The notes under the pieces are model-generated. The model was not told the origin of the DNA and did no database searches. It saw only the letters and a program-made list of their open reading frames with translations. The position numbers and the translations under genes were made by a program. Below, piece by piece: positions 1,890 to 40,769 of a stretch of 64,000 bases of DNA. The stretch lies in NCBI GenBank assembly GCA_963817895.1, contig CAWFQB010000005.1:480001-544000 (forward strand). The letters run 5' to 3'. Source of the stretch: an uncultured Chthonomonadaceae bacterium (GTDB taxonomy: Bacteria > Armatimonadota > Chthonomonadetes > Chthonomonadales > Chthonomonadaceae). Positions within the stretch are counted from its first letter, which is position 1; each line of letters opens with the position of its first letter.

Positions 1890-4800
1890 TCACAGCAGAT
1901 GCGTCGCCTGTTCCCAGGGCAGAGCGCTGCCCTCCTCCCAGGCAATAGTGAAGGCCGCTTCGCCCAGGGCGGAACGCGCTTGCTCCAGATACTGATCACG
2001 CGCTTTTCGTTTGTTGTCAGGCAGTGGGAAGCCCAGCGTTTCACGCAGCATTTCCGCCGCTCCCCATAGCTGTACGGCTTTCCCAGGTTCGGCCTGGATC
2101 AGCAATACAATCGCCAGGTCTTCCAGACTTGCCACAACGGCGGGTTTATCGTCCGGCCTTTGCAGAAGGCGCAGTCTCCTGGTATACAATGCCCGCGCTG
2201 AAGCGTAGTCGGCCTGACTTTTGGCGATGTCCCCCAGGTTGCCCAACGCCTGAGCGATCCCGCGCCTGTCCCCCAGTTCCTGAAATAGGTTCATGCTCTC
2301 TTCAATGCAAGCCCGCGCCGCTTCCCATTCGCCCGCATTGTTCAGCGCATTGCCCCTGTTGCCGAGCGACCGGGCGATCCCCTGCTTATCCCCCAATTCC
2401 CTGAAGAGGCTCAAACTCTCCTCGATACAAGTCCGCTCCAAAACAGGATCGTCTTGATTTGATGCCACGTTGCCCATGTTCAAAAGCGCGCGCGCCATGC
2501 CAAGTCTGTCCTCCAGAAACCTGGCAATGCTCAGGCTCTCCTCGAAGCAATTTTGTGCCGCCGCGTAATCCCCCTGTTGTCGCAGCACAATGCCCGTATT
2601 GCTCAACGCGAGCGCAATGCCGGCCCGGTCGTCCAGTTTTCTTTTGAGCGTCAGACTCTCCTCATACAACGTCAGCGCCGAACCAATCTCGCCAACCGCA
2701 AGAGCGATATTGCCCAGGTTGCCCAGCGGGTTGGCGATGCCCGGGGTATCTTCCCGCTCCCTTGCGATGCTCAGGCTCTCCTCGAATAACGCGCGCGCCG
2801 CGCCGTAATCGCCCTGATCATAGGCCAGCGCCCCGGCTCCGTTCAACGCCTGCGCCCGCGCCAACGTTCTCTCTTGCGCGTCCTCCCGCTCCAGCGCGCC
2901 GCGCAGATACCCCCGGCCCTCACTATAGATGCCGCGCACATACCAGAACCGCCACAACGCGCTCACCAGTCGCAATTCTGCCTTTGCCCCCGGCCTGTCT
3001 GGGGCGCTCCATGCCAGCGCCGCCCGCAGATTGTCGTATTCCCGATCCAGCCGATGCAGCCAGTGTTTCTGGCCGCCGCCTTTCAGATGCAGCGCAGCCT
3101 CCTCCGCCAGCAGCAGAAACCAGTCCCGATGTCTGTCCCGGACCTTTTCCTCTTCATTGCGCGCGCGCAGTTTCTCCGCCGCGTACTGCCGAACCGTTTC
3201 CAGCAAACGGTAACGCCCGCCGCTATTCTCTTCCGGTTCCTCAAACGTGACCAGCGACTTGTCTACCAGCCCCGTGAGCAGGTTCAGTATCTGTTCCGCC
3301 TCCATACCTCCTCCGCTGCCTGTTTGCTCCGCGGCTTCCAGCGTCCAGCCCCCCGCGAAGACGGACAATCGCCCCAGCAGCGCGCGCTCCGCTTCCGACA
3401 GCAGCGTGTACGACCAGTCCAGCGTTGTTCGTAGAGTCTGCTGCCGCGATTGCGCCGCGCGATTTCCCACCGTCAGAAGCCCCAGGCGGGAGTTCAGGCG
3501 GGCCGCGATTTGTTCTACTGTCAGCGACCGGACACGCGCCGCCGCCAACTCGATAGCAAGGGGAATGCCTTCCAGTTGAAAGCATATCTGCGCTACAGTC
3601 ATGGCGTTGCCTGGCACGAGAGCAAAGTCTTTCTGGCCGGCTTGCGCGCGTTCGACGAAGAGCTGAACACTCTCACAGGCTCCCAATACTTGCGTCAGGG
3701 CGGCATCTCCCTCCTGCAACTGTTTTGGATCCGGCACGGCCAGGGAAGGCACCTGCCAGACGGTTTCGCCCATGATGCTCAGGGCTTCCCGGCTTGTGGC
3801 GAGGATACGAACGCGCGCGCACTCCTGCAAGAGGTGTCCAACCACTTGAGCGCACGATGTCAGGAGATGTTCGCAGTTATCCAGCACCAGCAGCAGCCGC
3901 TTCGCGCGCAGATGATCGGTCAGGCTTGCCAGCAGGGAACGTTCCGGTTCCTCCCGCAGCCCCAATATGGAGGCAATCTGCGTCACAACCTGACTGCCTT
4001 CGGAGAGGGTTTCCAGGGCCACGAGCCACACGCCATCCGGGTAGGCGGTCCCGTCCTGAACGCTTTCACCGGCGACTTCGATAGCGAGCCGGGTTTTGCC
4101 GATGCCGCCTGATCCGGTCAGCGTCACCAGACGGGACCCGCGCAGTTTTGCCGCCACCTCACCGCGCTCCACTGCGCGTCCAATCAGATTGGTAAGGGGA
4201 AAGGGGAGATAGCCACTGACGGCGGGAACTCCGGCTTCATTGCCAACAGGTTCCCGCGCCAAAACAGCAGCCTGAGCCTGAGTTTGAGCCGGAGAATGAA
4301 ATTGAGACTGCGATTGTTGACGCGCTTCGGTTCGCAGGCGCGCGTAAAGCGCGCTCGTCTCCTCATCGGGAACAGCGTTGGGATCGCCGCGAAGCTGTTC
4401 AACAAACTCCCGATAAACCTGCATCGCGGCGTTGCGATCCCCACTTTTTGCCAGCGCCTCCATCCATCCGCGCCGCGCCGCCTCCGTCCAGGGATCCAGG
4501 CTGATGGCCCGCCGATAGAAAGCAATCGCGGCGGCATAGTCGCCTGCCGTCAAAGCCCTATCTGCCAGCGTTTGCAGCGCGCGCAGACAGTCTTGTTCGC
4601 GCGCATTGCGCTCCTGCCCGATCCACTCCTCGGCGCAATCTTCCAGCAGCGGCCCGCGATACAACTCCACCGCCTGTTTGAGCGCGTCCGGCTTCTGGCT
4701 GCGAATCGCGGCATCAAAGGCGAGGATGTCCACATTCGCGTCCGCCAGGTTCAGGGACAGGGTATGGCGTCCGGGCGATTGCAGCCGGACGCCCTGATCT

Positions 4801-5060
4801 CCCAGCGCGCCGCGCAATTCGCTTAAATTCGCCCGCAGGTTCGTGAAGGCGCGACCTGTGTCCGTATCGGGCCACAGAGTTCCGGCCAGCCATTCCCGCT
4901 CCACAGCCCGCCCATGCCGCAAGGTGAGCAGCGCCAGCAGCCAGAGCGCTTTGCGCGATCTCAAACGCGGCAGGGGCAGGCCATGCGCCAACACCTGCAT
5001 CGGTCCGAAAAGATGGATGGTGAGCGAAGGCGAGGCGACAGCGGAAGGTGTGACGGCCAT
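1890..5060 (-). CDS. AfsR/SARP-family regulator: wHTH-BTAD-NB-ARC(STAND)-TPR
   Basis: LFGPMQV/LWP wHTH, LYRGPLLE BTAD, Walker A GSGGIGKT, LLVLDNCEH, GIPLAIELAA, C-terminal TPR repeats. Confidence 0.88.
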   Translation of the reverse strand: MAVTPSAVASPSLTIHLFGPMQVLAHGLPLPRLRSRKALWLLALLTLRHGRAVEREWLAGTLWPDTDTGRAFTNLRANLSELRGALGDQGVRLQSPGRHTLSLNLADANVDILAFDAAIRSQKPDALKQAVELYRGPLLEDCAEEWIGQERNAREQDCLRALQTLADRALTAGDYAAAIAFYRRAISLDPWTEAARRGWMEALAKSGDRNAAMQVYREFVEQLRGDPNAVPDEETSALYARLRTEARQQSQSQFHSPAQTQAQAAVLAREPVGNEAGVPAVSGYLPFPLTNLIGRAVERGEVAAKLRGSRLVTLTGSGGIGKTRLAIEVAGESVQDGTAYPDGVWLVALETLSEGSQVVTQIASILGLREEPERSLLASLTDHLRAKRLLLVLDNCEHLLTSCAQVVGHLLQECARVRILATSREALSIMGETVWQVPSLAVPDPKQLQEGDAALTQVLGACESVQLFVERAQAGQKDFALVPGNAMTVAQICFQLEGIPLAIELAAARVRSLTVEQIAARLNSRLGLLTVGNRAAQSRQQTLRTTLDWSYTLLSEAERALLGRLSVFAGGWTLEAAEQTGSGGGMEAEQILNLLTGLVDKSLVTFEEPEENSGGRYRLLETVRQYAAEKLRARNEEEKVRDRHRDWFLLLAEEAALHLKGGGQKHWLHRLDREYDNLRAALAWSAPDRPGAKAELRLVSALWRFWYVRGIYSEGRGYLRGALEREDAQERTLARAQALNGAGALAYDQGDYGAARALFEESLSIAREREDTPGIANPLGNLGNIALAVGEIGSALTLYEESLTLKRKLDDRAGIALALSNTGIVLRQQGDYAAAQNCFEESLSIARFLEDRLGMARALLNMGNVASNQDDPVLERTCIEESLSLFRELGDKQGIARSLGNRGNALNNAGEWEAARACIEESMNLFQELGDRRGIAQALGNLGDIAKSQADYASARALYTRRLRLLQRPDDKPAVVASLEDLAIVLLIQAEPGKAVQLWGAAEMLRETLGFPLPDNKRKARDQYLEQARSALGEAAFTIAWEEGSALPWEQATHLL

Positions 5061-29282: not shown

Positions 29283-30959
29283 TCAGCGCAGATGCCGCGC
29301 CAGGAAGATGGCGTACAGGCGGCAGCGGAAGCGGGCTTCTTCGAGAGATGCGCCTGTCAGGACGCCCGCCGCGCGCAATCGGTAAAAGGTTTCCGGCGTG
29401 GCGCAGCGTTGCCCGAGGGACAGGGCGCGTACCGCTTCTTTCAATTCCGGGGCGCGGGACAGGGCGGCAAGCATTCGGCGCAGATGTTCGCCAAACGGCC
29501 CGTTCTCCTGATCGGCCTCGGCTTCCAGCGCATCCAGAGGGAGTTGGCGCGTTACCATTGTATCATAGCCGCGCCGCGCCAGGTAGGGATGCCCGCCGAT
29601 CAGGTCGTAAAAACGCGACACTTCCCACTCTGAAAGCGGGCTGCCGTAGCGCCGGTTCAGGTCGGCAAGCTGGTCCGGCGTGAAATCGTCAAGCTGCAAG
29701 CGCGTACCGACATTGAACGGGGACTGGTTGAGGTCCTGAATAAACAAATGCGCTTCCGTCGCGTAGGCAATGGCAAGCGTAAGCCGGGACCAGGGGCCGT
29801 CCGGGTCCAGGGCGCGGCGATTGTGCCAGGAGCGGAACAAGCCGAACACTTCATTGCCGCACGGCAGGGTAAACAGCCTGTCCACCTCATCCAGTCCCCA
29901 CACGAGCGGCGTGTCCGAAGCGGCTAAGGCGACGTTGCACAAAAAGCGCTCCAGATTGCGATTGGCGCTGCGATTGGGATTCCAATGCGCTTCCGGGTCG
30001 GTATCCAATGCGAGCTGGTCCGCCATCTCCTGCGCCAGTTCGCGGTACAGCGCATCGGAGGAACCGAGCGTCGTCTGGGAAAGGCTGTCGAAGTCGGTCA
30101 TCACGACGCGGCTGCCGTTTTGTCGCGCCGTCTGCAAACCGCGCGCCAGCAGGCTGGTTTTGCCCACCTGCCGCGCCCCCTTGACAAGCACGATGCTGTC
30201 CTGTCGCGTAATCGCCTGCGCAAAATTGGCATCGGTGTCATGCAGAATATAAAACGGCGAATTCAGCGGCACGGCTCCGCCATCGGCGTCGAGGGGAAAG
30301 GATGAAGGATGAAGGATGAAGGATGAAGCCTCCCCTTCTTGTATCTTGTATCTTGTATCTTGTATCTTCTCCTCTTCTCCTTGTCTCCCTATCTCCTTGT
30401 CTCCCTCCGGCGCGGGCAGGGACGCCAGCAATGCGGTTATACGTGCGTGGGAACGCTGACAGCGGGCGCGGGCTTCCACTGCCCATGTTTCGCGCCAGCC
30501 GTCAAGGAGAGGCGCGGAACAGAGTTGTAAGGCTTCCCGCCACCCTGCCGCGTTGATTTCCGACTGTGCCAGTTGTTCAAACCGAAGCAAATCCACGTTC
30601 GCGTCATCGAGATTGAAGCGTATCACGCCCCGGCCCGCGCTTTCCACCCGCCACTCGTGATCGCCCAGCGCGCGGCGCAGGGCGCGAACGCCCTGCCGCG
30701 TGGAGGGAAAGTCGCCGCCCGCATATTCGTCGTTCTGTTGCGCTTCGGACGGCCAGAACAGCAGGGCGAGCTGCCGGTATGTGACGAGTTGCCCGTGCCG
30801 AAGGGCGAGATACGCCAGCAGGCGCTCCCCTTCGCGCAGATGCAATCCGGTTAATGGCTTATCGTCAATGGATGCTTCCAGCGCGCCGAAAAGACGCAGC
30901 GTGAGTTCGGAGGAGGCCAACTTTTCTTTTCCCTGCCTTTGCTGCTGTATCTGCCCCAT
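29283..30959 (-). CDS. SARP-like wHTH-BTAD regulator fused to an AAA_35 (STAND-type) ATPase
   Basis: [67 protein letters not shown]; start uncertain (30920-31016). Confidence 0.82.
30297..30407 (-). repeat. Composite microsatellite element in frame in the regulator linker
   Basis: (GGAGACAA-like)n-(AGATACA)x4-(TTCATCC)x4; same order and reading frame as the hpnI insert. Confidence 0.85.
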
Positions 30960-31057
30960 GCCTGTTTGCCGCGCTGCATCAAAGCCCTGTCCGTCACACA
31001 GTTTTTGCCTGCACATATTGATATTCGCCTGCCTGCGCTTTGTTTCCTGCTCATCTG

Positions 31058-31121
31058 GTCACGTTAAAATAAAAACTCTGTCACGCTGGTCACGTTAGCG
31101 TCACGCGAAATGGTTTAGAAT
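31058..31121 (+). promoter_or_regulatory. GTCACG direct-repeat activator box plus -10 (TAGAAT)
   Basis: GTCACG at 31058, 31080, 31089, 31100; -10 at 31116-31121, 9 bp after the last GTCACGC. Confidence 0.75.
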
Positions 31122-31270
31122 AGGTTTGTGCCTGCCGGATACGCCCGGACGCGTATCCGGTTCCGGTACAAAAACGGCCTGCCCATTTCCGCAGCAGTTT
31201 TGCAGGACACCGGCTTTGCGCAGGCCGCTCTTATTTTTGCCGTCGCTTTTGCCGTACACAGGGAGAAACC

Positions 31271-32287
31271 ATGATTTGCACTCGTATTTCACTTTTGGGC
31301 GCGTTCGCTCTGGGCGCACTGGCTCTCGCCGCCTGCCGTCCCGCGTCGGCGCAGCTCACGTTTACGTACACGTCCTTCGATGTACCGGGCGCATATACGG
31401 GCGATATAGGCTATGGCACGTACTTCCACGGCATCAGCAACAACGGAACCATCGTTGGCGACTATGATGTAGACGCAAACATGGGTTCAGCCTTCGTCCT
31501 TCAGAATGGCAGCTACACCCATCTCAACTATCCGGGCGCTGTCGCTGGCGACTACACGTATCTCCACGCAGTCAATTCTTCGGGCGTGATGGTGGGCAGT
31601 TATTACCAGGCATCTACCGATAGCCTCATTGATTACATCTACCGCAATGGCGCGTTCATCATTCCTACGCCTACCCATCCCATAAAAGGCCCTCCTGGTT
31701 TTAGCGCTGTGACCGATTCCGGCCTGGTAGCCTCGCAATACCATGATGCCTCCAATGTTGTGCATGGAGCCATCTACAATCTCAACACGGACACGTTCGC
31801 GGATGTCGCTTCGGTTCCCATCAGCGCGACGCAGGATTTCTTTTTGCTCGGCGTCAATGACAGCGGCGATTACGTGGGAAGCTATCTGGATGCCAACGGA
31901 AACATTCAAGGCGCGTTCAATCAGGGCGGAACGTTCACCTACCTCAGCCTTCCGGGCGCGGACTCGACCCGCCCTTCAGGTATTAATTCCAGCGGAATGA
32001 TTACGGGGCGGTACTTCTTTAATAATAGCGCCGATCAAGCCGGTTTCCTCTACGATCACGGGACGTACTACACGCTGCAATATCCGGGCGCGCAGTTCAC
32101 AAACGTAACATACGGCGCCATCAACGACCACAACCAGATCGTCGGCTTCTATCAGGATGCCAACGGCGCGGATCATGGCCTGCTGATACAGATCACGCCC
32201 GAACCCGGCAGCGTGGCTTTGCTGACCGGCATGGTAGTTAGCGGCGGATTATTGCTGCGCCGCGCCCGAAAGCGCCGCGTTTCCTGA
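31271..32287 (+). CDS. PEP-CTERM protein with extracellular GIN-x-G-x-IVG repeats
   Basis: Signal peptide, repeated GISNNGTIVG/GINSSGMITG/AINDHNQIVG, C-terminal TPEPGSVALL-TM-RRARKRR. Confidence 0.88.
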   Translation: MICTRISLLGAFALGALALAACRPASAQLTFTYTSFDVPGAYTGDIGYGTYFHGISNNGTIVGDYDVDANMGSAFVLQNGSYTHLNYPGAVAGDYTYLHAVNSSGVMVGSYYQASTDSLIDYIYRNGAFIIPTPTHPIKGPPGFSAVTDSGLVASQYHDASNVVHGAIYNLNTDTFADVASVPISATQDFFLLGVNDSGDYVGSYLDANGNIQGAFNQGGTFTYLSLPGADSTRPSGINSSGMITGRYFFNNSADQAGFLYDHGTYYTLQYPGAQFTNVTYGAINDHNQIVGFYQDANGADHGLLIQITPEPGSVALLTGMVVSGGLLLRRARKRRVS

Positions 32288-32321
32288 CGCCAGCGAACAG
32301 ACTAAATGCCTCTTTAGCACA

Positions 32322-32480
32322 GTGACCACTCCCCCGGCGTTTACGCCGGGGCTTCTATCCCGTCAAGCGGGAGCACTGTATTGCTCCACAGCGATTTTAA
32401 GTAAGAAGGTTCCTGGCGGCGTTCACGTCCCTATTCAGCACAAGGCCCCCGGCGCATCTGTGAGGAATCGCGCCCCGCTG
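32322..32480 (-). mobile_element. IS200/IS605-family remnant: tnpB 3' tip plus right end
   Basis: GLVLNRDVNAARNL (TnpB RuvC-III motif), then hairpin GAAGCCCCGGCGTAAACGCCGGGGGAG and end TGGTCAC. Confidence 0.8.
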
Positions 32481-32606
32481 CAAGGACCAGACGAGGAACA
32501 GCACACTGCCAAATTGCCGCCGCCAGTTTAACGCGCTCTCTGCGCGTCCTGACGCGGTTGAAAGGCATGTGTGTCCGGGGCATGTACTGTCTGAGGAGCG
32601 GCGAGC

Positions 32607-33107
32607 ATGAAGCAAGTACAGGAAGCGGGCAAGCTGATTGTGAGCAAGGGCGAATACGCGAAGAGACAGAGCCAGCGAGCCGGACAAGGTTTGCTGGGAA
32701 CAGGGCTGTATGTCTCTGCGGTTGTGTGTGGATTTTTGGCTGTGTCTTTGCTCGTCGTTTTCTGGCAGACTCTGATGCTCTACAAACAGAAGGTAGGCAC
32801 TTCTGATGACATAGTAATTTTCCAGTTGAGTGCCATGCTCGGATTTGTTATCCTCAGCGCGCTCTGTGCAGGAACCTGGTTTTTCCGCAAGTCGGCTTTA
32901 CTTATTCTCAAGCAGGCGAAAGAAATGGAAATGGGCATTCCCCTCACCCGCGCCAACACTGCCAACCTACCCACCCTCAACAGCCTGGTACGCGCCAGTC
33001 AGGAACCCATTCAGGCGCAAGGGGCCGTGCTGCTGCGAGCGGCTGTGGGAACGCAGGAGAGGCCGCAGGAACAACTGCTCAGGGCGTCGGCAAAAGAGCA
33101 GGATTAA
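32607..33107 (+). CDS. Two-TM hypothetical membrane protein
   Basis: GAGGAG RBS, two hydrophobic helices, C-terminal LVRAS/LLRAA/LLRAS repeats. Confidence 0.65.
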   Translation: MKQVQEAGKLIVSKGEYAKRQSQRAGQGLLGTGLYVSAVVCGFLAVSLLVVFWQTLMLYKQKVGTSDDIVIFQLSAMLGFVILSALCAGTWFFRKSALLILKQAKEMEMGIPLTRANTANLPTLNSLVRASQEPIQAQGAVLLRAAVGTQERPQEQLLRASAKEQD

Positions 33108-33289
33108 AACCGGCGCGGCGCGGTTTTCGGTTGTTACGGCAAACTGGTTCCCCTGCGGCGAAAAGTCGCCCCGCGTATAATCCGCGCTCTGCAAAGGTTG
33201 CGCCCATCACTGTCAAGCCGGAACCGCCTTTTTCGGTCAGGGAACACACAAACGCTTCGTCCTCCGTTTCGCGCTCCAGATTATACAGG

Positions 33290-33490
33290 TACAGCGATAA
33301 AATGTCTGTTCCGTAATGCCAGGTTTACGGCAGGCGTCGGCGACCAACGTGCCGCCTTCCACCAACCTCAAGGTGGCGACGATCTGTTCCTGCGTGAACT
33401 CTTCTTCATGGTCTGGTTCATTCAGAAGGAAAGTTCAAGATATGCCCGCTCCTCACCTTCCAAACAGTCCAGATTTTCGGGAATGTGTCA
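33290..33490 (-). mobile_element. IS3-family remnant (left end plus truncated orfA)
   Basis: Starts 5'-TG (TGACACATTCCCGAAAATCTGGAC); from ATG 33409, with one indel, reads MKK..FTQEQIVATLRLVEGGTLVADACRKPGITEQTFYR (OrfA HTH). Confidence 0.75.
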
Positions 33491-33591
33491 CTTATGGCGA
33501 AGACGCATTGTGCCAGAGATCGACAGACAAGCCCCCGGCTGTAAGGAGGAACCATATCTGCGTTGAATATTATCCTGTACTCGGAACAGAG

Positions 33592-36500
33592 TTACGGTGA
33601 TGAGGTAATGTGCGTGGCATCGGCAAACCATATTTTAGCGCCATCGTAAGAGCCGATTACGAGACGCTTGCCGTCAGGAGAGAAAGCAACCACCTGGAGT
33701 TCTCCCGAGCCTGTAAAGCCTTTTAGCGTGAGCAGTTCCTGGCCGCTGTGGGCGTCCCATATCTTCACCGTTTTATCTGCATAGCCCGTAGCGATGCGTT
33801 TGCCGTCCGGGGAGAAAGCGACAGAACTGACTAGGCTGACATATCCTTTCAGGATGAACTGCTCCTTTCCTGTTGCCACGTTCCATACGCTCACTATGCC
33901 GTCTTCGCTGCTCGCTGCAAGCTGCCTGCCATTCGGAGAGAAAGCAACCGCTCTAACGTCGGCTGAAAGTCCTGTGAATCCGGGAAGTTCCTTGCCGGTG
34001 AGACTGAAAATCTCCTTGCCGGTGACGGCATCATATACCTTCACCACTCTATTCCTGCCGCCTATAGCGATGCGCTTGCCGTCAGAAGACAGGGCTGCCG
34101 AGGTGTAATTGCGCGTGTCTGTTTTGAGATTGAGAAGTTCCTTGCCCGTAATCGTGTCCCAAACGTGGACGGTTTTACCCCAGCTGTCTGCCGTGAGGAT
34201 GCGTTTCCCGTCCGGGAAGAAAGCGGCAAACTCGACTGGAGATGTATGCCCTTTGAGTTTGAGAAGTTCCTTGCCGGTTGCCACCTCCCACACCCTGGTT
34301 GTATATTCTTTTGCGGTGTAGTCTGCGCTGCCCGTTACAAGCCGCTTGCCATTCGGAGAAAAGGCCGCAGCATTTATTACTTCGCCTTTTGCAAATCTCT
34401 GTATGGGTGTCAGGATTTCCTTTCCTGTTGTTGTGTCCCACATAGCGAATTTGAGCCCGCCTGTTACAAGCCGCTTGCTGTCAGGAGAAAAGGCAACTGT
34501 GTAGACATTGCTGGATTCTTTGCGAAGCGTAAGAGACTCCCGGCTGCTCTGTGGCGTCCATATCTTTGCCGTACCGTCCATACTGCCGGTAGCAATTCGC
34601 TTGCCATCAGGAGAAATCGCAACCCCCAAAACGTGATACTTATGTCCCTTGAGGGTAAGCGGATTGCGGTAATCCGCATCCCATGCTGTGCCGTCCTGTC
34701 CAGCCTTTCTACTCCACACGATTGCTGTGCTGTCTTCACGGCCTGCGACAATCCCAAGATTAGGCGAGAAGGCGATACATGTAATGCCGCCGGTATGTTC
34801 AAGAGGTACGCGAGTCGCTTTGTCGGTTGTCACGTCCCATACGCTTACGCCTTCGTTGCTGCGGCTGCTGACAAGGAGTTCGCTGTCGGAAACGAAGACG
34901 ATGGGATCGACGGACGCAAAAAACAGTGTGTTGAGCGCCTTGCCGGTTGCGGCCTCCCGTACCGTTATGTCATTTCCACCGGCTGTTGCGATGCGCTTGC
35001 CGTCAGGAGAGTAAACAACGGATCTGTAGAATGGTCATTCAGGGTGAACAGTTCCTGACCTGTCTGTGCGTCCCACACTCTTGCCGTTGTGTCGTTACTG
35101 CCCGTGACGAGTCGCTTGCTATCAGGAGAAAACGCAACAGACGCGACAACGCTGGTATGTCCATTAAGCGTCAGCAGCACCTTGCCTGTCTGCGCGTCCC
35201 ACACCCTGGCTGTCTTATCTTCACTGCCGGTTGCGATGCGCCTGCCATCAGGAGAGACTGCGACGGACACAACGGCGGAGGTATGCCCCTTGCAGGTGAA
35301 CAGTTCCTGACCTGTCTGTGCGTCCCACACCTTTGCGGTTTTGTCATAACTGCCCGTAACGAGACGCTTGCCATCGGGAGAAAACGCAACAGACTTGACA
35401 ACGCTGGTATGTCCGTTGAGGGTGAGCTTGTCTCGATGACAAAGCCATTTCCAGTACTCCCATTCGAACATGCCGCGCCCGCGCGCACTAGTCTGGTCGA
35501 GCAGTTCCCTTAAATTTCCAATGCTGTTGGTTTCCCAATCGCGCTGTATCAAAGCCATGTCCGCGACATACAGGTTGCGGTTGGCTTCTGCGGCGTTACG
35601 CTGTGCGGCAATTTTGGCCTTTGACTCAGAGTGACGAGCGTTGTTGGCAGCGTGAGCGGACCGTTTTGCCGCTTCACTCTGCTTCACTTCGCGGACGGCG
35701 GCGTCCCGCGCCCTCTGCGTCTGCCGGACGGCTTCTGTTTTGGCATCTTCAGCCTTTTGCCGCGGCCTTAGCCCTTATCAGCGCGTCCGACTTGACTGCC
35801 TCGCTCCTCCGGGCGTTCTCCGCGCTCTTGTTCGCATCTTCGGTCTTCCGGGTGGCAATCAAAGCGTTGCGATTGGCGCGGTCGGTTTCGTCACGCGCAA
35901 CGCGGGCGTTGTGGACAGCCCACACAGCGAGGGAGGCAACGACACTCAGCACCAGGCCGGAAATTGCTCCTGCCAGGGACAGACCCCGCTTGAAGGCTTG
36001 CTTCTGTCTTCGGAGTTCCGCGTCAGGGAGGTGCTGCTCGACCCACGCCACATCAAAGACTTGCGCGTAGATGCGATTTCGCACTCGCAAATCTCCCTCC
36101 ACTACTTTGACGATCCCGGACAGGCGCAGCACGTCGTGCAGAGGATTGGTGGCGTCATCCCGGAATTTGCGGCCGCGCAGCAGTTGGCGGTACAAATCGA
36201 GGAGAGCAGTCCTGTCCACGTCCCCATGCAGCAGGCGACTGCGCGCGAACGCCAGATTGTCGTCTGCCAGCTGTGCCCGCTTGCTCAGGAACAGGGCTTC
36301 ACACGCGCTGTCCACATCCCGCCGAGTCAACGGTTCTGCCTGCGCCGTCTGTTCGCCCGTCTGCTCCGCAAGCGCCCGGCACAACATCTGCGTCAGGTAA
36401 GGATGCCCGTCCGTCCAGTACAAAATACAATTCAGGGTTGAAGCCGGGGAGAAAGGAAACAGGAGAAATGAGAAAGTCTGTGCCTCGCTGCTTTCTCCTG

Positions 36501-37169
36501 TTTCCTTTCTCCTTTCTCCTAATCCCTGTGCGAGTGGCGCGGCTTCTTCCGGGGTGAAATCGGTCAGTTCTATTCGGGTGCCGATGTTGAAGGGCGTGGT
36601 GCGAGGGTCGCGGATCAAGTCGGTGGGGGCCGCTACGCCGAGCAGACAAAAGGTAAGGCGCGTATAGGCGACATCCTGCGCGCGACGGTTGTAACACTCG
36701 CGGATACCGGCGAAAAATTCATCGGTGGAGAACGGCAGGCTGCGAACCGCGTCGATCTCGTCCACGAAGATGCAGATGGGGTGAGCGTCCTGTAAAACGA
36801 TCTGGCGCAGAGCCATCATCCACTTCTGCATCGGTGACAGACGTTCATGCCGCAGCCAGAAGGCTTCCAATTCGTCTTCCAGATGCAATTGCTCGGCGAT
36901 CAGGGTGAGCAGGCCATCGTACCACGCTTCCACGCTCACGTTCTGGCCGATAGCGGTCAAATCAAGGACGGCGACGCGAACGCCTTCCGCGCGCAAGGCT
37001 TGCGCGGTTCGCACCATGAGGGAGGATTTGCCGATCTGCCGCGTGTTGAGGACGTAGCAAAACTCGCTCTGCCGCAGCGCTGCCAGCAAATCCGTGTCGG
37101 CGCAGCGCGCGACATAAAATCCGCGTTAAGGGGCAGTGTGCCGCCGGTGATATAAAAGTTGTCGCGCAT
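33592..37169 (-). CDS. AAA_35 ATPase - TM - coiled coil - WD40 beta-propeller protein (several indels)
   Basis: FYITGGTL, FCYVLNTRQIGKSS, IFVDEID, TPFNIG, WTDGHPYLTQ, TM GLSLAG..LAVWAV, FEWEYW, many GH..V..VAFSPDG WD40 repeats; pieces are ORFs 36957-37199, 35749-37089, 34965-35687 and 33592-34833. Confidence 0.82.
36448..36512. repeat. 21-bp perfect inverted repeat, in frame within the AAA_35 domain
   Basis: GGAGAAAGGAAACAGGAGAAA (36448-36468) / TTTCTCCTGTTTCCTTTCTCC (36492-36512). Confidence 0.8.
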
Positions 37170-37321
37170 GGGTTTTGGGCCGTAATCTTGTCCGCTCAAT
37201 TAAAAAAGGCAAGCGCGTTCGCGCGGCGCGGTTCACGACGGCAGATTTGCCGCCGCGCCGGAAGCGGGCTGCTATTATTCTTGCACAAGATCGAGCGAAA
37301 TTTACGCGAGGAACCCCATTG

Positions 37322-37396
37322 GTCACGCAATGCCGCAAAAGCAGTCACGCTGGTCACGTTAGCGTCACGCTGCCGTCACGCGGGTTGGCATATACT
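37322..37396 (+). promoter_or_regulatory. GTCACG direct-repeat activator box plus -10 (TATACT)
   Basis: GTCACG at 37322, 37344, 37353, 37364, 37375; -10 at 37391-37396, 9 bp after the last GTCACGC; 37344-37370 identical to 31080-31106. Confidence 0.78.
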
Positions 37397-37505
37397 GAAC
37401 ATGACCCTGCCGCAAGCGCGGCGAGATAATCACTCTGCGCTATCCGCTGCCCGGAAACATTCGGCGCAGCCACTCATTGAACATTGAACAATGGAACATT
37501 GAACG

Positions 37506-38297
37506 ATGAAAAGGAAGACCATGCGAACTCACACACCCAACACGCGGCATTTAACCCGCAACCGGGCTTTCACTCTGATTGAACTGCTCGTAGTCATTGC
37601 CATTATCGCCATTCTTGCGGCGATACTGTTTCCCGTGTTTGCCCAGGCGCGGGAAAAGGCGCGTTCCACTTCGTGTCTGAGCAACACGAAACAGATTGGC
37701 CTGGCAACCGCGCAGTACACGCAGGACTATGACGAAATGGCGACGCCCGCGGAAATGCGCCCTTCGGATACTCTGCCTATCACCTGGGCGCAACTGCTCA
37801 CGCCGTACACCAAAAACGCGCAAATACAGCGCTGTCCCAGCGCGGCCAACAGAACAGCGGTCAGCGCCTTTCTTACCAATCCCGGCCCCTCCGGCTTTGT
37901 CAATCCCACGCATCTGGACTACGTGATGAACGCGCGGGCGGGATACAACCAGTATTACACGCTTGCCCTCGCGCAGGTCAACAATCCCGCCGGATGGGTC
38001 TATGTTTGCGATGGCGCGACACAGGCCGACCCTACCGCAAAGGACAAGCATTATATCACGGCCGCTTCCCCTTACAAACCGACGGCCTATATGCTGGAGG
38101 ATATGGCGGGAATGCCGAACTGGCCGGATTCAGCGCAGTTTGTGGCTTCAACCAATACGGAGTGGGCCGCGCCCATTCTGCGGCATCAGGGCCTGACAAA
38201 TACCCTGTTCTTTGATGGTCATGCCAAAGCCGCACACGCGGATCAGTGGTACTACCCGAATACGCCCTGGCTGGACCCGGCAGGCGCGGGCAACTAA
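37506..38297 (+). CDS. DUF1559-type prepilin-like protein
   Basis: [45 protein letters not shown]-terminal H-x9-DGH. Confidence 0.92.
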
Positions 38298-38313
38298 GAA
38301 CCTGTTCCAAATG

Positions 38314-38356
38314 GCCCTCAACCCCTGACCCCTTCTCCCAAAGTTGGGAGAAGGGG
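38314..38356 (+). repeat. CCCTCA..CCCCTTCTCCCA/TGGGAGAAGGGG palindromic element (copy 2)
   Basis: Matches 26721-26767. Confidence 0.75.
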
Positions 38357-38427
38357 AACCTGTTGAGATAAACGTCCAATTACGAGCAACACACTCTCAA
38401 CGACTTGCGCCGTGAAAAGGAGACACC

Positions 38428-40769
38428 ATGAAGACGCTGTTTTCCGCATTGACATCACCAATAAACTTACGCTCAGGGCGGCGAACTTGCCTGCGAAATG
38501 CGCTGATGCTCGGCTGTGTTCTCGCCGTCAGCCTGTTTGCCCCCGCGCTTGCCCATGCCGACGCGGTTGTGACCGAGCCGACGGAAGCCGCGCTCGACGC
38601 GGCGCTGGCGCAGGTAGCGAAGGGCGGAACCATTACCTTCGCCTGTGACGGAACCATCCCCATCACGAACACGAAAAAGATTACTGCCGTTTCTACTACA
38701 TCCCCTACCGTCACGCTGGATGCCACCGGACACAACATCACTCTGGATGGCGGTGGCAAAACCACTCTGTTCTCTGCAACAGGACACATACAATATAATC
38801 CGATTGAGGACGTTAACATCCGCTACAGAGCGTCCATCGTTTTCAAGAGCCTGACGTTGACCAATAGCGCGGGCAGAGCCGTGTCAGCCAACCTGGGGAA
38901 TGTGACGGCCTCCAATTGCGCTTTTACCAACAATGGCGGTATCGTTGTCACCGGCGGCAATTTGAACGCCACCAACTGTTCGTTCACCAATAATACCGCT
39001 GCTTCGGGAGGAGCCGCGCAGGGCAGCAACGGAAGCATGACGGCTTCCTATTGTACCTTTGTCAACAATGTCGCTTCTTCCGGGGGCGCGCTACAGGGTT
39101 CTTCACTGATAGTGACTTCGCATTGCGCCTTCCTCAACAATCGCGCTACGAATGGCAATGGCGGAGCCATCTGCAACACTGTCAATGGCGTGTCGCTTTC
39201 AGACAGCGTGTTTGCGGGCAACTCCGCCGAGTACCCCGGCACCGGCGCGTCAGGCGGCGCGGTCTATTACGGGGGGCGAGGCGGCGCAAACACGATTACG
39301 CGTTGCGCTTTCCTCAACAACGCTGTAAGCGCCTCCGATGCCAGCATTGTTACCGGCGGCGCGCTGATGGCGGACGGCCCCTCATCTCCTACCAGCATAA
39401 CCAACTGCACGTTTGTGGGCAATCGCGCGGCAGGCGGGGGCGCAGCGGCAGGCGGCGCGATTTACTTTATCAGCTCCATGTACGGCGAACCAACAACCGT
39501 ATCACAAACTGCACGATTTCTGGAAACAATGCGACAGGCGGGCAGGGCAGCGCGGGTTCCGGCGGCGGCATTTACGACAACACGGCAATGCTTACGCTCG
39601 TCAACACGATTGTCGCCAACAACACCGCCAGCACGAGCGGCAACAATGGCAGGGGAACCCTCACGGATGGCGGCCACAATCTTTGTTCGGACACATCCTG
39701 CGGCTTTACTTTTGCTTCCAGCCTCAACAACACCGACCCCCACTTTGGCCCGCTCATCTATCCCGGCAACGCTGCCCCTACCCTCTCGCTGCTGGCAGGC
39801 AGTCCGGCCATAGACGCGGGCGACGACAGTTACGCGCCCACAACCGATCAGCGTGGAGCGGCTCGCGTGGGCGTAAGCGACATCGGCGCGTATGAGCGTC
39901 CACTCTGGCAGGTGGATAGTTTAGCTGTTGGCTCGGACGCCAAAACGCGACTGCTGTGGAACAAGAGCAATGCCGCCGCGCAGTTGTGGAACGTGGACAC
40001 GAACACGGGCGCGTACAGCATGTTCTGGCAGGGCGGGCTGTCAAGCGCGGGAACCATCACGAGCGTTACCGTTGGCGGCGATAGCGCCACCAATTTGCTG
40101 TGGCAGAACACGCAGGGACGCGCCCAACTGTGGCGGGTGAACACGACAACGGGAGCAGTCCTCAACCAGCATAGTTATGGCCCCAACGCGGGCTGGACAG
40201 TCTCTTCACTGGCAGTGGGAAGCGACAACCAACAACGGGTGCTGTGGAACAACCAGAACGGTTCCACGTTTCTGTGGAACGTCAACAGCGGCACGGGCAA
40301 CATTGGATGGGGCGCGTTCTACGATGTCATTCCCAACTGGACGGCAACGGCGCTGGCAGTCGGCGCGGATGGCAACCTGCGGGTCTTGTGGAACAACGCG
40401 AGCGGACAGATGTTTCTGTGGAGCGTCAACACCACAAGCGGGCAACTCGTCTCAGGAGCCTCCTTCGGCCCGGTTCCTGGTTGGACAGCAACGAACATCG
40501 CGTGTGGCAGGGACAACAACATTCGCGTCCTTTGGCAGAACGTCAGCGGCCAAACCTTTGTGTGGAGCGTGGACACGATAACCGCGCAGATCGTGTCGGG
40601 CTGCACATTCGCGCCCCGAACCGGCTGGAACGCGGCGGGCATTGCGGTAGGAGATGGCAACAACACGCGGGTTCTGTGGCAGAAACTGGATGGAACTGTG
40701 GAACTGTGGAATGTGGACACCGTAACCGGCGCAACGCTTTCCACGCAGAACTATGGCCCCCTGCCATAA
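38428..40769 (+). CDS. Secreted beta-helix protein with choice-of-anchor-Q-like segment and C-terminal repeats (indel near 39490)
   Basis: Signal peptide, GGA(I)/F-x-x-N repeats, GSPAIDAG..TDQRG..DIGAYE, then about six 44-aa VGxD..RVLW repeats. Confidence 0.75.

Follow-up and report, generated by a model that had tools for sequence, protein, structure and literature searches.

We analyzed a 64,000-nucleotide stretch (the window) of the genome of an uncultured Chthonomonadaceae bacterium (assembly GCA_963817895.1, contig CAWFQB010000005.1, positions 480,001 to 544,000), in which two genes on the reverse strand, referred to here as genes A and B, encode related AAA_35 ATPases. Gene A joins the winged-helix head of a Streptomyces antibiotic regulatory protein (SARP) to a C-terminal ATPase and has no sensor; gene B encodes an N-terminal ATPase followed by a predicted membrane helix and WD40 repeats. 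The same two architectures are paired across genomes, and at loci with the SARP form of A (SARP-A) a box of fixed spacing lies ahead of exported-protein genes. On balance, we favor a split pair of the type of signal transduction ATPases that have numerous domains (STAND), in which the predicted membrane protein B, its propellers likely outside, would recruit the sensor-less SARP-A by direct contact, upon which A would activate both divergent promoters through their GTCACG repeats at 11-bp spacing. The features of the two genes are:

29283..31016, (-) strand: gene A, clade A protein, 577 aa, with an OmpR-type winged helix, a BTAD cut after three helices, a low-complexity linker and a C-terminal AAA_35; no sensor
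29301..30278, (-) strand: clade A AAA_35 domain, from the Pfam match and an AlphaFold model; includes a winged helix
33592..37169 (about), (-) strand: gene B, clade B putative receptor, about 1190 aa across three frame breaks, with AAA_35, membrane helix, predicted coiled coil and 14 WD40-like repeats
36022..37160, (-) strand: clade B AAA_35 domain, motifs NTRQIGKSS, VDEID, RECYNRR, TPFNIG and GHPYL
35914..35970, (-) strand: predicted transmembrane helix of gene B, Kyte-Doolittle hydropathy (KD19) 2.11, basic residues on the ATPase side
33600..35430, (-) strand: WD40 repeats of gene B, 14 WD40-like repeats counted by eye across frames

Two AAA_35 architectures and their pairing

Both genes belong to AAA_35 (PF14516) according to Pfam: gene A over aa 247-572 (E 1.6e-71, 241.3 bits versus a gathering cut-off of 27 bits) and gene B with E 8.5e-21 and 74.5 bits (cut-off 27 bits). 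The Walker motifs of gene A are GARQVGKTS (Walker A) and LDEVD (Walker B). A previous interpretation made from the DNA letters alone (the sequence-only reading) had described the Walker motifs of both ATPases as intact; the family, the Walker lysine and Walker B DE were confirmed in both genes, but the first Gly of Walker A is Asn in gene B. Among 84 A-B pairs, this position was T, D or N in 83 B proteins and Gly in 82 A proteins, and the Walker lysine (within K-[ST]-S), Walker B DE and RxxxNxR were retained in both clades (81/84 each). Both Walker motifs are of the ASCE type expected of STAND NTPases.

A profile of the gene A family (95 relatives) matched AfsR with E 2e-9, identifying a SARP-type OmpR winged helix; used as a single-sequence phmmer query, the SARP head matched no SARP structure. 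Pfam did not call BTAD (PF03704) on gene A, and paralogues at loci L003 and L010 passed this model. In the AlphaFold model of gene A (mean pLDDT 88.5), the winged helix is followed by three BTAD helices, then by a disordered linker and finally by the ATPase; residues 1-30 were of low confidence, and the true start may be a later Met. The model also included a STAND helical domain, with GHPYL (a GxP motif present in both clades), helices 509-549 and a hairpin, for which the clade B side was assigned by alignment only. Its nearest solved folds were PAB2304, SSO1545, Avs3, ORC/Cdc6 and CED-4, with EmbR lower (E 1.1e-4). The chain stops right behind the ATPase, and no ligand-binding, FHA or TPR domain was found in it by Pfam. 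Of the wHTH-BTAD head without later sensor that had been proposed for gene A, the winged helix and the absence of a sensor held, but the BTAD is truncated. In AfsR, BTAD helices 4-7 seat sigma region 4 and contact alpha-CTD (PMC10936776, cited here and below for the part of its text consulted). The 26 closest relatives of gene A are 515-582 aa long and lack PF03704, and the short SARP-A form is therefore conserved. Gene A R185 aligns, in the profile alignment read by hand, to AfsR R173, a beta-flap contact required for activation (PMC10936776), and is Arg in 73 of 95 rows. Close relatives of the locus proteins are named Chthonomonadaceae, Armatimonas and Capsulimonas, which points to Armatimonadota as the probable phylum of the genome. 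A low-complexity repeat runs in frame through the linker (30280-30400), and similar peptides are found in the linkers of further genes, both in this genome and in its relatives.

The transmembrane helix, coiled coil and WD40 repeats ascribed to the other gene were all recovered in gene B, the helix and the coiled coil as predictions. Its hydrophobic helix is preceded by a basic stretch, RRQKQAFKRG, and its repeats likely form two seven-bladed propellers. Judging from other clade B proteins, these propellers likely lie outside the cytoplasm. A low-complexity inverted repeat is present in frame within the gene B ATPase (36448-36519).

The reading frame of gene B is broken near 37117, 35750 and 35030, and that of a beta-helix gene near 39500. 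Together with probable insertion sequence (IS) remnants between the two genes and a His at gene A position 259, which is Arg almost without exception in the family, these breaks would fit a window copy that is decaying and no longer signals, a reading that we consider highly improbable. A 185-nt contig of short-read run X1, which may represent the source sample, matches 37056-37239 with one extra base at 37117 as its sole difference, and this base keeps the frame; no listed matching contig spans the breaks at 35750, 35030 and 39500. At least two of the breaks are located at short single-base runs, and rpoC and ileS on contig C3 of the source genome, 2 of 6 housekeeping genes tested, are also frame-broken. 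Single-base errors are common in this assembly, and assembly error is the likely cause of the frame breaks.

AAA_35 genes of the source genome (G000) numbered 10 in clade A and 13 in clade B; the two clades separated with support 1.0 in a tree that excluded two partial A copies and one broken B. Clade A proteins consist of an output domain and a C-terminal ATPase without sensor, and in clade B proteins the ATPase is N-terminal and is followed by a membrane helix and a sensor that varies. Outputs of the 10 clade A genes were SARP (6), cyclase (2), cyclase plus TIR (1) and TIR (1), and 9 of these genes have a clade B gene within 10 kb. The window A and B are each sister to copies on contig C9, and the gene set (SARP-A, B, PEP-CTERM-like, DUF1559) recurs, differently ordered, in cassettes on C9 and C10.

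Co-occurrence and adjacency of the two architectures, suggested earlier as a check, were evident across genomes. Of 158 external loci anchored on clade A, comprising the best 78 from one scan and the best 80 from another, 128 contained clade B, downstream within 600 bp in 107 and elsewhere in the locus in 21. Clade B was also present in 20 of 22 SARP-A loci and in 12 of the 13 stretches retrieved with the SARP head as sole query. The two SARP-A loci without B are a 3.7-kb contig and L015, and B is present in L099, the longer twin of L015; L015 and L099 appear to be the same DNA, as do L048 and L148. Among 150 sampled genomes of the phylum, 23 had A, 23 had B and 22 had both (22 of the 24 holding either), and the other clade lay within 10 kb for 38 of the 52 matches to A and 38 of the 53 matches to B; in this count class was set by bit score with at most 13 candidates scored per genome, many contigs were short, G000 rows and weak or duplicate fragments were dropped, and kin are not independent. 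The commonest clade A output was TIR (88/158 loci, alone or with cyclase or SARP), and for 163 of the 164 complete A domains the end comes within 15 aa. The A/B pair is a general module with TIR or cyclase as usual outputs, and SARP is one output among several. Distances within A and B were correlated (mirror-tree r 0.90, 84 pairs), which indicates co-inheritance only and was not counted for contact.

Among 114 complete B domains, 108 were followed by at least 40 aa, and 105 of these 108 then had a helix with KD19 of at least 1.6. Around these 105 helices, Lys and Arg were more numerous before the helix (the ATPase side) in 82 cases, equal in 18 and fewer in 5. At least three WD repeats were detected with our own profile in 53 of 107 C-terminal regions. 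Of the other 54, 35 were scanned with Pfam, yielding 7 more WD40, 8 PEGA/CarboxypepD_reg, 6 TPR, 7 with no family and one each of DUF2092, CBM_4_9, FGE-sulfatase, NHL, LptF/G, T2SSE and GAF-SpoIIE. PEGA, DUF2092 and CBM domains are typical of exported proteins, and their use as sensors therefore supports an ATPase-in, sensor-out orientation. In STAND proteins the C-terminal sensor shares chain and compartment with the ATPase; here A has no sensor, and that of B lies beyond the predicted membrane helix. The split architecture that had been envisaged is supported, and the outside topology of the predicted transmembrane receptor is supported indirectly by the sensor families and the helix and charge counts of relatives.

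Soluble clade B forms also exist: L009:9253-14002 (G000, contig C2) has three AAA_35 genes in a row, encoding a TIR-A, a soluble B that stops at the ATPase, and a sensor-less B with two helices. L004:7725-10286 is a lone clade B receptor whose domain past the membrane helix has no Pfam family. Unusual B fusions included B-LptF/G-B (L153:4476-8312), B with a T2SSE ATPase (L087:5017-7680) and B with GAF-SpoIIE (L089).

A promoter box ahead of exported-protein genes

Each ATPase gene is divergent from an exported-protein unit, as the sequence-only reading had stated and family matches confirmed (PEP-CTERM for gene A; DUF1559 plus beta-helix protein for gene B). The repeat box that it saw in both intergenic regions was also recovered: 34 nt are common to the two at 91% identity, and the exact pattern occurs 2 times in the window versus 0.00 expected (100 shuffles). 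The boxes and predicted targets are:

31058..31121, (+) strand: promoter box 1, GTCACG at 31058, 31080, 31089 and 31100 (steps 22, 9, 11); TAGAAT, -10-like, at 31116, 10 nt past the last repeat
37322..37396, (+) strand: promoter box 2, GTCACG at 37322, 37344, 37353, 37364 and 37375 (steps 22, 9, 11, 11); TATACT, -10-like, at 37391, 10 nt past the last repeat
31271..32287, (+) strand: exported PEP-CTERM protein with HAF-like repeats (TIGR02595 16.4 bits, cut-off 16), predicted target
37506..38297, (+) strand: DUF1559 prepilin-type protein, predicted target
38428..40769, (+) strand: exported protein with a beta-helix, PMP-like repeats, choice-of-anchor Q and, at its C-terminus, 48-aa repeats; the frame is broken near 39500, and the gene likely shares a transcript with the DUF1559 gene

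The genome was searched for a pair of GTCACG hexamers at 11-bp spacing, with one mismatch allowed per hexamer, located 10 nt before TAnnnT. This strict box had 10 sites in the 7.48 Mb genome, 7 of them in the 32 kb made up by three SARP-A cassettes; 43 other spacings gave 0-3 sites each, and one gave 5, mostly re-reading the 10-nt sites. Across loci, the box at 10 nt had 13 sites in 27 SARP-A loci (7 in the source genome and 6 in five external loci, two of which are twins) versus 0 in 144 other loci. In a later check, 42 genomes of the family were searched with the SARP head and 13 stretches from 7 genomes were taken, leaving out our own copies and the L015 twin (L194 overlaps L042). With the pattern fixed beforehand, this out-of-sample set had 9 boxes at 10 nt in 167 kb, in 6 of the 13 stretches, versus 2 at all other spacings.

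Genes behind the boxes mostly had a signal peptide or PEP-CTERM tail. The box was also present ahead of the clade B gene in L006, L011, L013, L199 and L200, and ahead of another clade A gene in L013 and L192. At four promoters, the C9 cassette carries a variant box of its own, GTAACG; comparison of recognition-helix residues with box variants showed no clear tracking. Two box-like promoters far from any SARP-A gene, at C1:1629438 and C11:267476 of G000, precede a DUF1559 gene and a PEP-CTERM paralogue, respectively, and are possible targets in trans. Another SARP-like N-terminal domain is present in the window at about 4623-5039 (-), with no box found nearby.

SARP sites consist of 11-bp repeats near the -10 element, with the afs box spanning -40 to -19 and contacts on the first 8 bp of each repeat (PMC10936776). 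The box geometry matches that of AfsR sites, with 11-bp repeats just upstream of -10 (PMC10936776). If the -10 hexamer is placed at -12 to -7, the last GTCACG hexamer would fall at -28 to -23, within the afs-box stretch.

The boxes could instead be read by a different winged-helix regulator, either OmpR/PhoB-type or a SARP with its own TPR sensor. OmpR-family sites are likewise 11-bp direct repeats with GTCA-like cores, the BTAD of gene A is truncated, and a SARP-TPR gene on contig C4, which lacks AAA_35, has a GTCACG repeat 9 nt before TATACT. Given that 7 of the 10 genome-wide boxes lie within SARP-A cassettes, that the C9 variant is present four times and that the association recurs in other genomes, we regard such a reader as improbable. 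The C4 gene (L012:5934-10195) is divergent from an operon of hydrolase-like, PP2C and kinase genes.

ATPase contact, the proposed relay and its alternatives

STAND ATPases signal by ligand-induced oligomerization, and the relay had been proposed to pass through contact between the two AAA_35 domains. An A-B heterodimer model of the ATPase domains with ATP gave weak support for this contact: the median score was 0.32 (0.32, 0.36, 0.04) versus 0.03 for the best control, contacts agreed at 87% or more and partner pLDDT was at least 84. The mark used was reached by 116 of the 157 solved pairs and by 2 of the 215 mismatched ones, but at scores of 0.60 or under by only 18 of the 157 solved pairs and both mismatches, counts that hold only roughly because our own alignments and ligand were used.

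[quoted passage not shown] Assembled A would bring two SARP heads next to each other over the -35 region, recruiting RNA polymerase, and the signal would pass to surface-protein genes without a kinase. Since the targets are exported proteins, the ligand is guessed to be an envelope or surface cue. The box ahead of the B gene in paralogous cassettes would result in feedback.

Several observations weigh against this interpretation. One of the three complex runs scored 0.04, a pass of the kind obtained for this pair is more often wrong than right unless contact is likely beforehand, and the score may reflect likeness to ORC/Cdc6 or CED-4 AAA+ rings. In the model, gene A lacks BTAD helices 4-7 and thus the full seven-helix BTAD of SARPs. 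Pairing is incomplete: 3 of 13 clade B genes in the source genome have no nearby A, and 30 of 158 A loci show no B, although 10 of these end within 600 bp. The strict box was found in only 5 of 21 external SARP-A loci (two being the same DNA) and 6 of 13 out-of-sample stretches, no box in the window is directed at gene B, and the C4 SARP-TPR gene carries the repeat. Finally, the KD19 cut-off was passed by the evidently cytoplasmic GAF-SpoIIE case (L089), and hydropathy can therefore admit a false helix.

The genomic data would fit either sign of the relay, with B activating or restraining A. Activation by assembly is given slightly better than even odds, and the main rival, which we consider unlikely, is that B is an anti-activator holding A at the membrane at rest and freeing it on ligand binding, as MalK restrains MalT or an anti-sigma factor its sigma factor. 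The box ahead of the B gene in the five loci named above suits negative feedback equally, a ring tethered to the membrane must still reach DNA, and the Walker A of gene B is non-canonical. On the other hand, the Walker A lysine, Walker B DE and RxxxNxR are kept in B in nearly all of the 84 pairs, which exceeds what a passive tether needs, and the commonest outputs, TIR and cyclase, are domains usually activated by assembly.

Alternatively, A and B could be co-inherited and co-regulated with an indirect relay through a nucleotide messenger from cyclase or TIR paralogues, a Ser/Thr kinase or another protein. We judge this to be a minor possibility: A has no ligand-binding or FHA domain, no third gene recurs among the SARP loci listed, and no kinase gene was evident by Pfam among the scanned open reading frames (ORFs) of 29283-40769. 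What speaks for it are four cyclase or TIR clade A genes in the source genome, the kinase-like and FHA genes adjoining L003, the weak A-B complex score and the fact that AfsR is a kinase substrate (PMC10936776).

A counter-invader (Avs/NLR-like) role, in which the SARP form triggers an envelope response to phage or predator contact, would be consistent with TIR as the commonest clade A output and with related two-gene STAND systems that have been read as counter-invader (PMC8195603, cited here and below for the part of its text consulted). However, PADLOC 2023 gave only short or weak matches to Walker A or WD40 and no full-length defense model, the output in the window is a transcription factor and its targets are exported proteins. 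This role, which appears very improbable, names a ligand rather than a different mechanism.

Neighboring genes, significance and known systems

Genes A and B are not adjacent; between them lie the PEP-CTERM gene, which has paralogues in the C9 and C10 cassettes, a 166-aa ORF and the probable IS remnants. These remnants, recognized by eye, are at 32397-32687 (-), which we take to be a TnpB C-terminus-like motif, and at about 33300-33420 (-), presumably an IS3 orfA-like start. The 166-aa hydrophobic ORF (32607-33107, +) was assigned to no Pfam family; tblastn gave 21 matches to it in the genome, itself included, several of them clustered on C4. Elsewhere in the genome, gyrA (G000:C3:718611-722360) is part of an open frame of 1342 aa in which model positions 66 and 49 are about 1.3 kb apart, which probably reflects an intein.

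AAA_35 A/B pairs may represent a further general class of bacterial transmembrane signaling beside two-component systems and extracytoplasmic function sigma factors, to which we give a little less than an even chance. Such a class would combine a membrane STAND receptor with swappable WD40, PEGA, TPR, DUF2092 or CBM sensors and a sensor-less helper with SARP, TIR or cyclase output, NLR-like across the membrane, a reading of the same tentative standing. To our knowledge, sensing and action of characterized STAND proteins take place on one side of the membrane and mostly within a single chain. If true, the proposed class would open a path that needs no kinase for outside signals in Armatimonadota, Acidobacteriota, Verrucomicrobiota and others, and supply a function for the unstudied Pfam family AAA_35; it also points to control of PEP-CTERM and DUF1559 surface proteins and to a possible chassis for engineered receptors. 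The SARP form has a predicted binding site and targets, and the relay is therefore testable by a reporter with three parts in a laboratory strain; through its promoter box, the class as a whole would gain a direct reporter assay. The analysis covered the genome-wide and out-of-sample box, its paralogue-specific variant, the truncated BTAD and read evidence on one frame break.

The A/B circuit is a variant of paired STAND signaling for which no published description was found: among the matches listed, the literature on AAA_35/PF14516, STAND, Npun, SARP and Armatimonadota yielded no account of the circuit, or of an A/B pair with a function or SARP output. For paired or helper STANDs, the matches listed were plant or fungal only. 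BTAD and Npun are not mentioned in the main text of PMC7159879, AAA_35 is not named in the consulted part of a STAND survey (bioRxiv 10.64898/2026.01.04.697583, PMC13581612), and the supplements consulted for the latter gave 0 matches to AAA_35, PF14516, BTAD or Npun, although its clade tables may hold such proteins by accession. In a separate line, a link to Synechocystis Hat (slr0143) was considered and not confirmed.

Several known systems resemble the pair in part. AfsR-type activators normally carry their sensor in cis. The AfsR-type large SARP (SARP-NOD-TPR; PMC10936776) shares the SARP head, a nucleotide-binding switch that follows this head, and 11-bp direct repeats covering the -35 region, but it has NB-ARC, a TPR sensor and a full BTAD in one chain, whereas here AAA_35, no TPR, a short BTAD and a separate membrane ATPase were found.

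The MNS clade with its Npun2340/2341 family is similar in that both ATPases pass the Pfam AAA_35 cut-off and the nearest folds are PAB2304 and SSO1545. The A/B pair may belong to this family, nearness to SSO1545/PAB2304 being a lead only. The family is named in PMC8195603, where a hetero-multimer is predicted for a different pair, nSTAND2. That two-gene system likewise has adjacent STAND genes, a predicted hetero-multimer and an effector on one of them; in contrast, one of its ATPases is eroded, its effectors are GT4 or HEPN and no membrane sensor appears in the part of the text consulted (PMC8195603). Here, the Walker lysine and the Walker B acidic pair are present in both ATPases, and one protein is predicted to cross the membrane.

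A split of sensing and output between two STANDs is also seen in sensor/helper NLR pairs (NAIP-NLRC4 and the plant NRC network), but these are eukaryotic, cytoplasmic and immune, whereas the A/B pair likely has its sensor outside the cytoplasm and has transcription as its output. In the MalT-MalK system, the STAND activator MalT is under the control, in trans, of the membrane ATPase MalK, which is an ABC transporter ATPase and not, like B, a paralogous STAND with its own sensor. Histidine kinase two-component systems share with the A/B pair a membrane receptor, a soluble winged-helix regulator and swappable inputs and outputs; neither a histidine kinase nor a receiver domain was found by Pfam in A or B.

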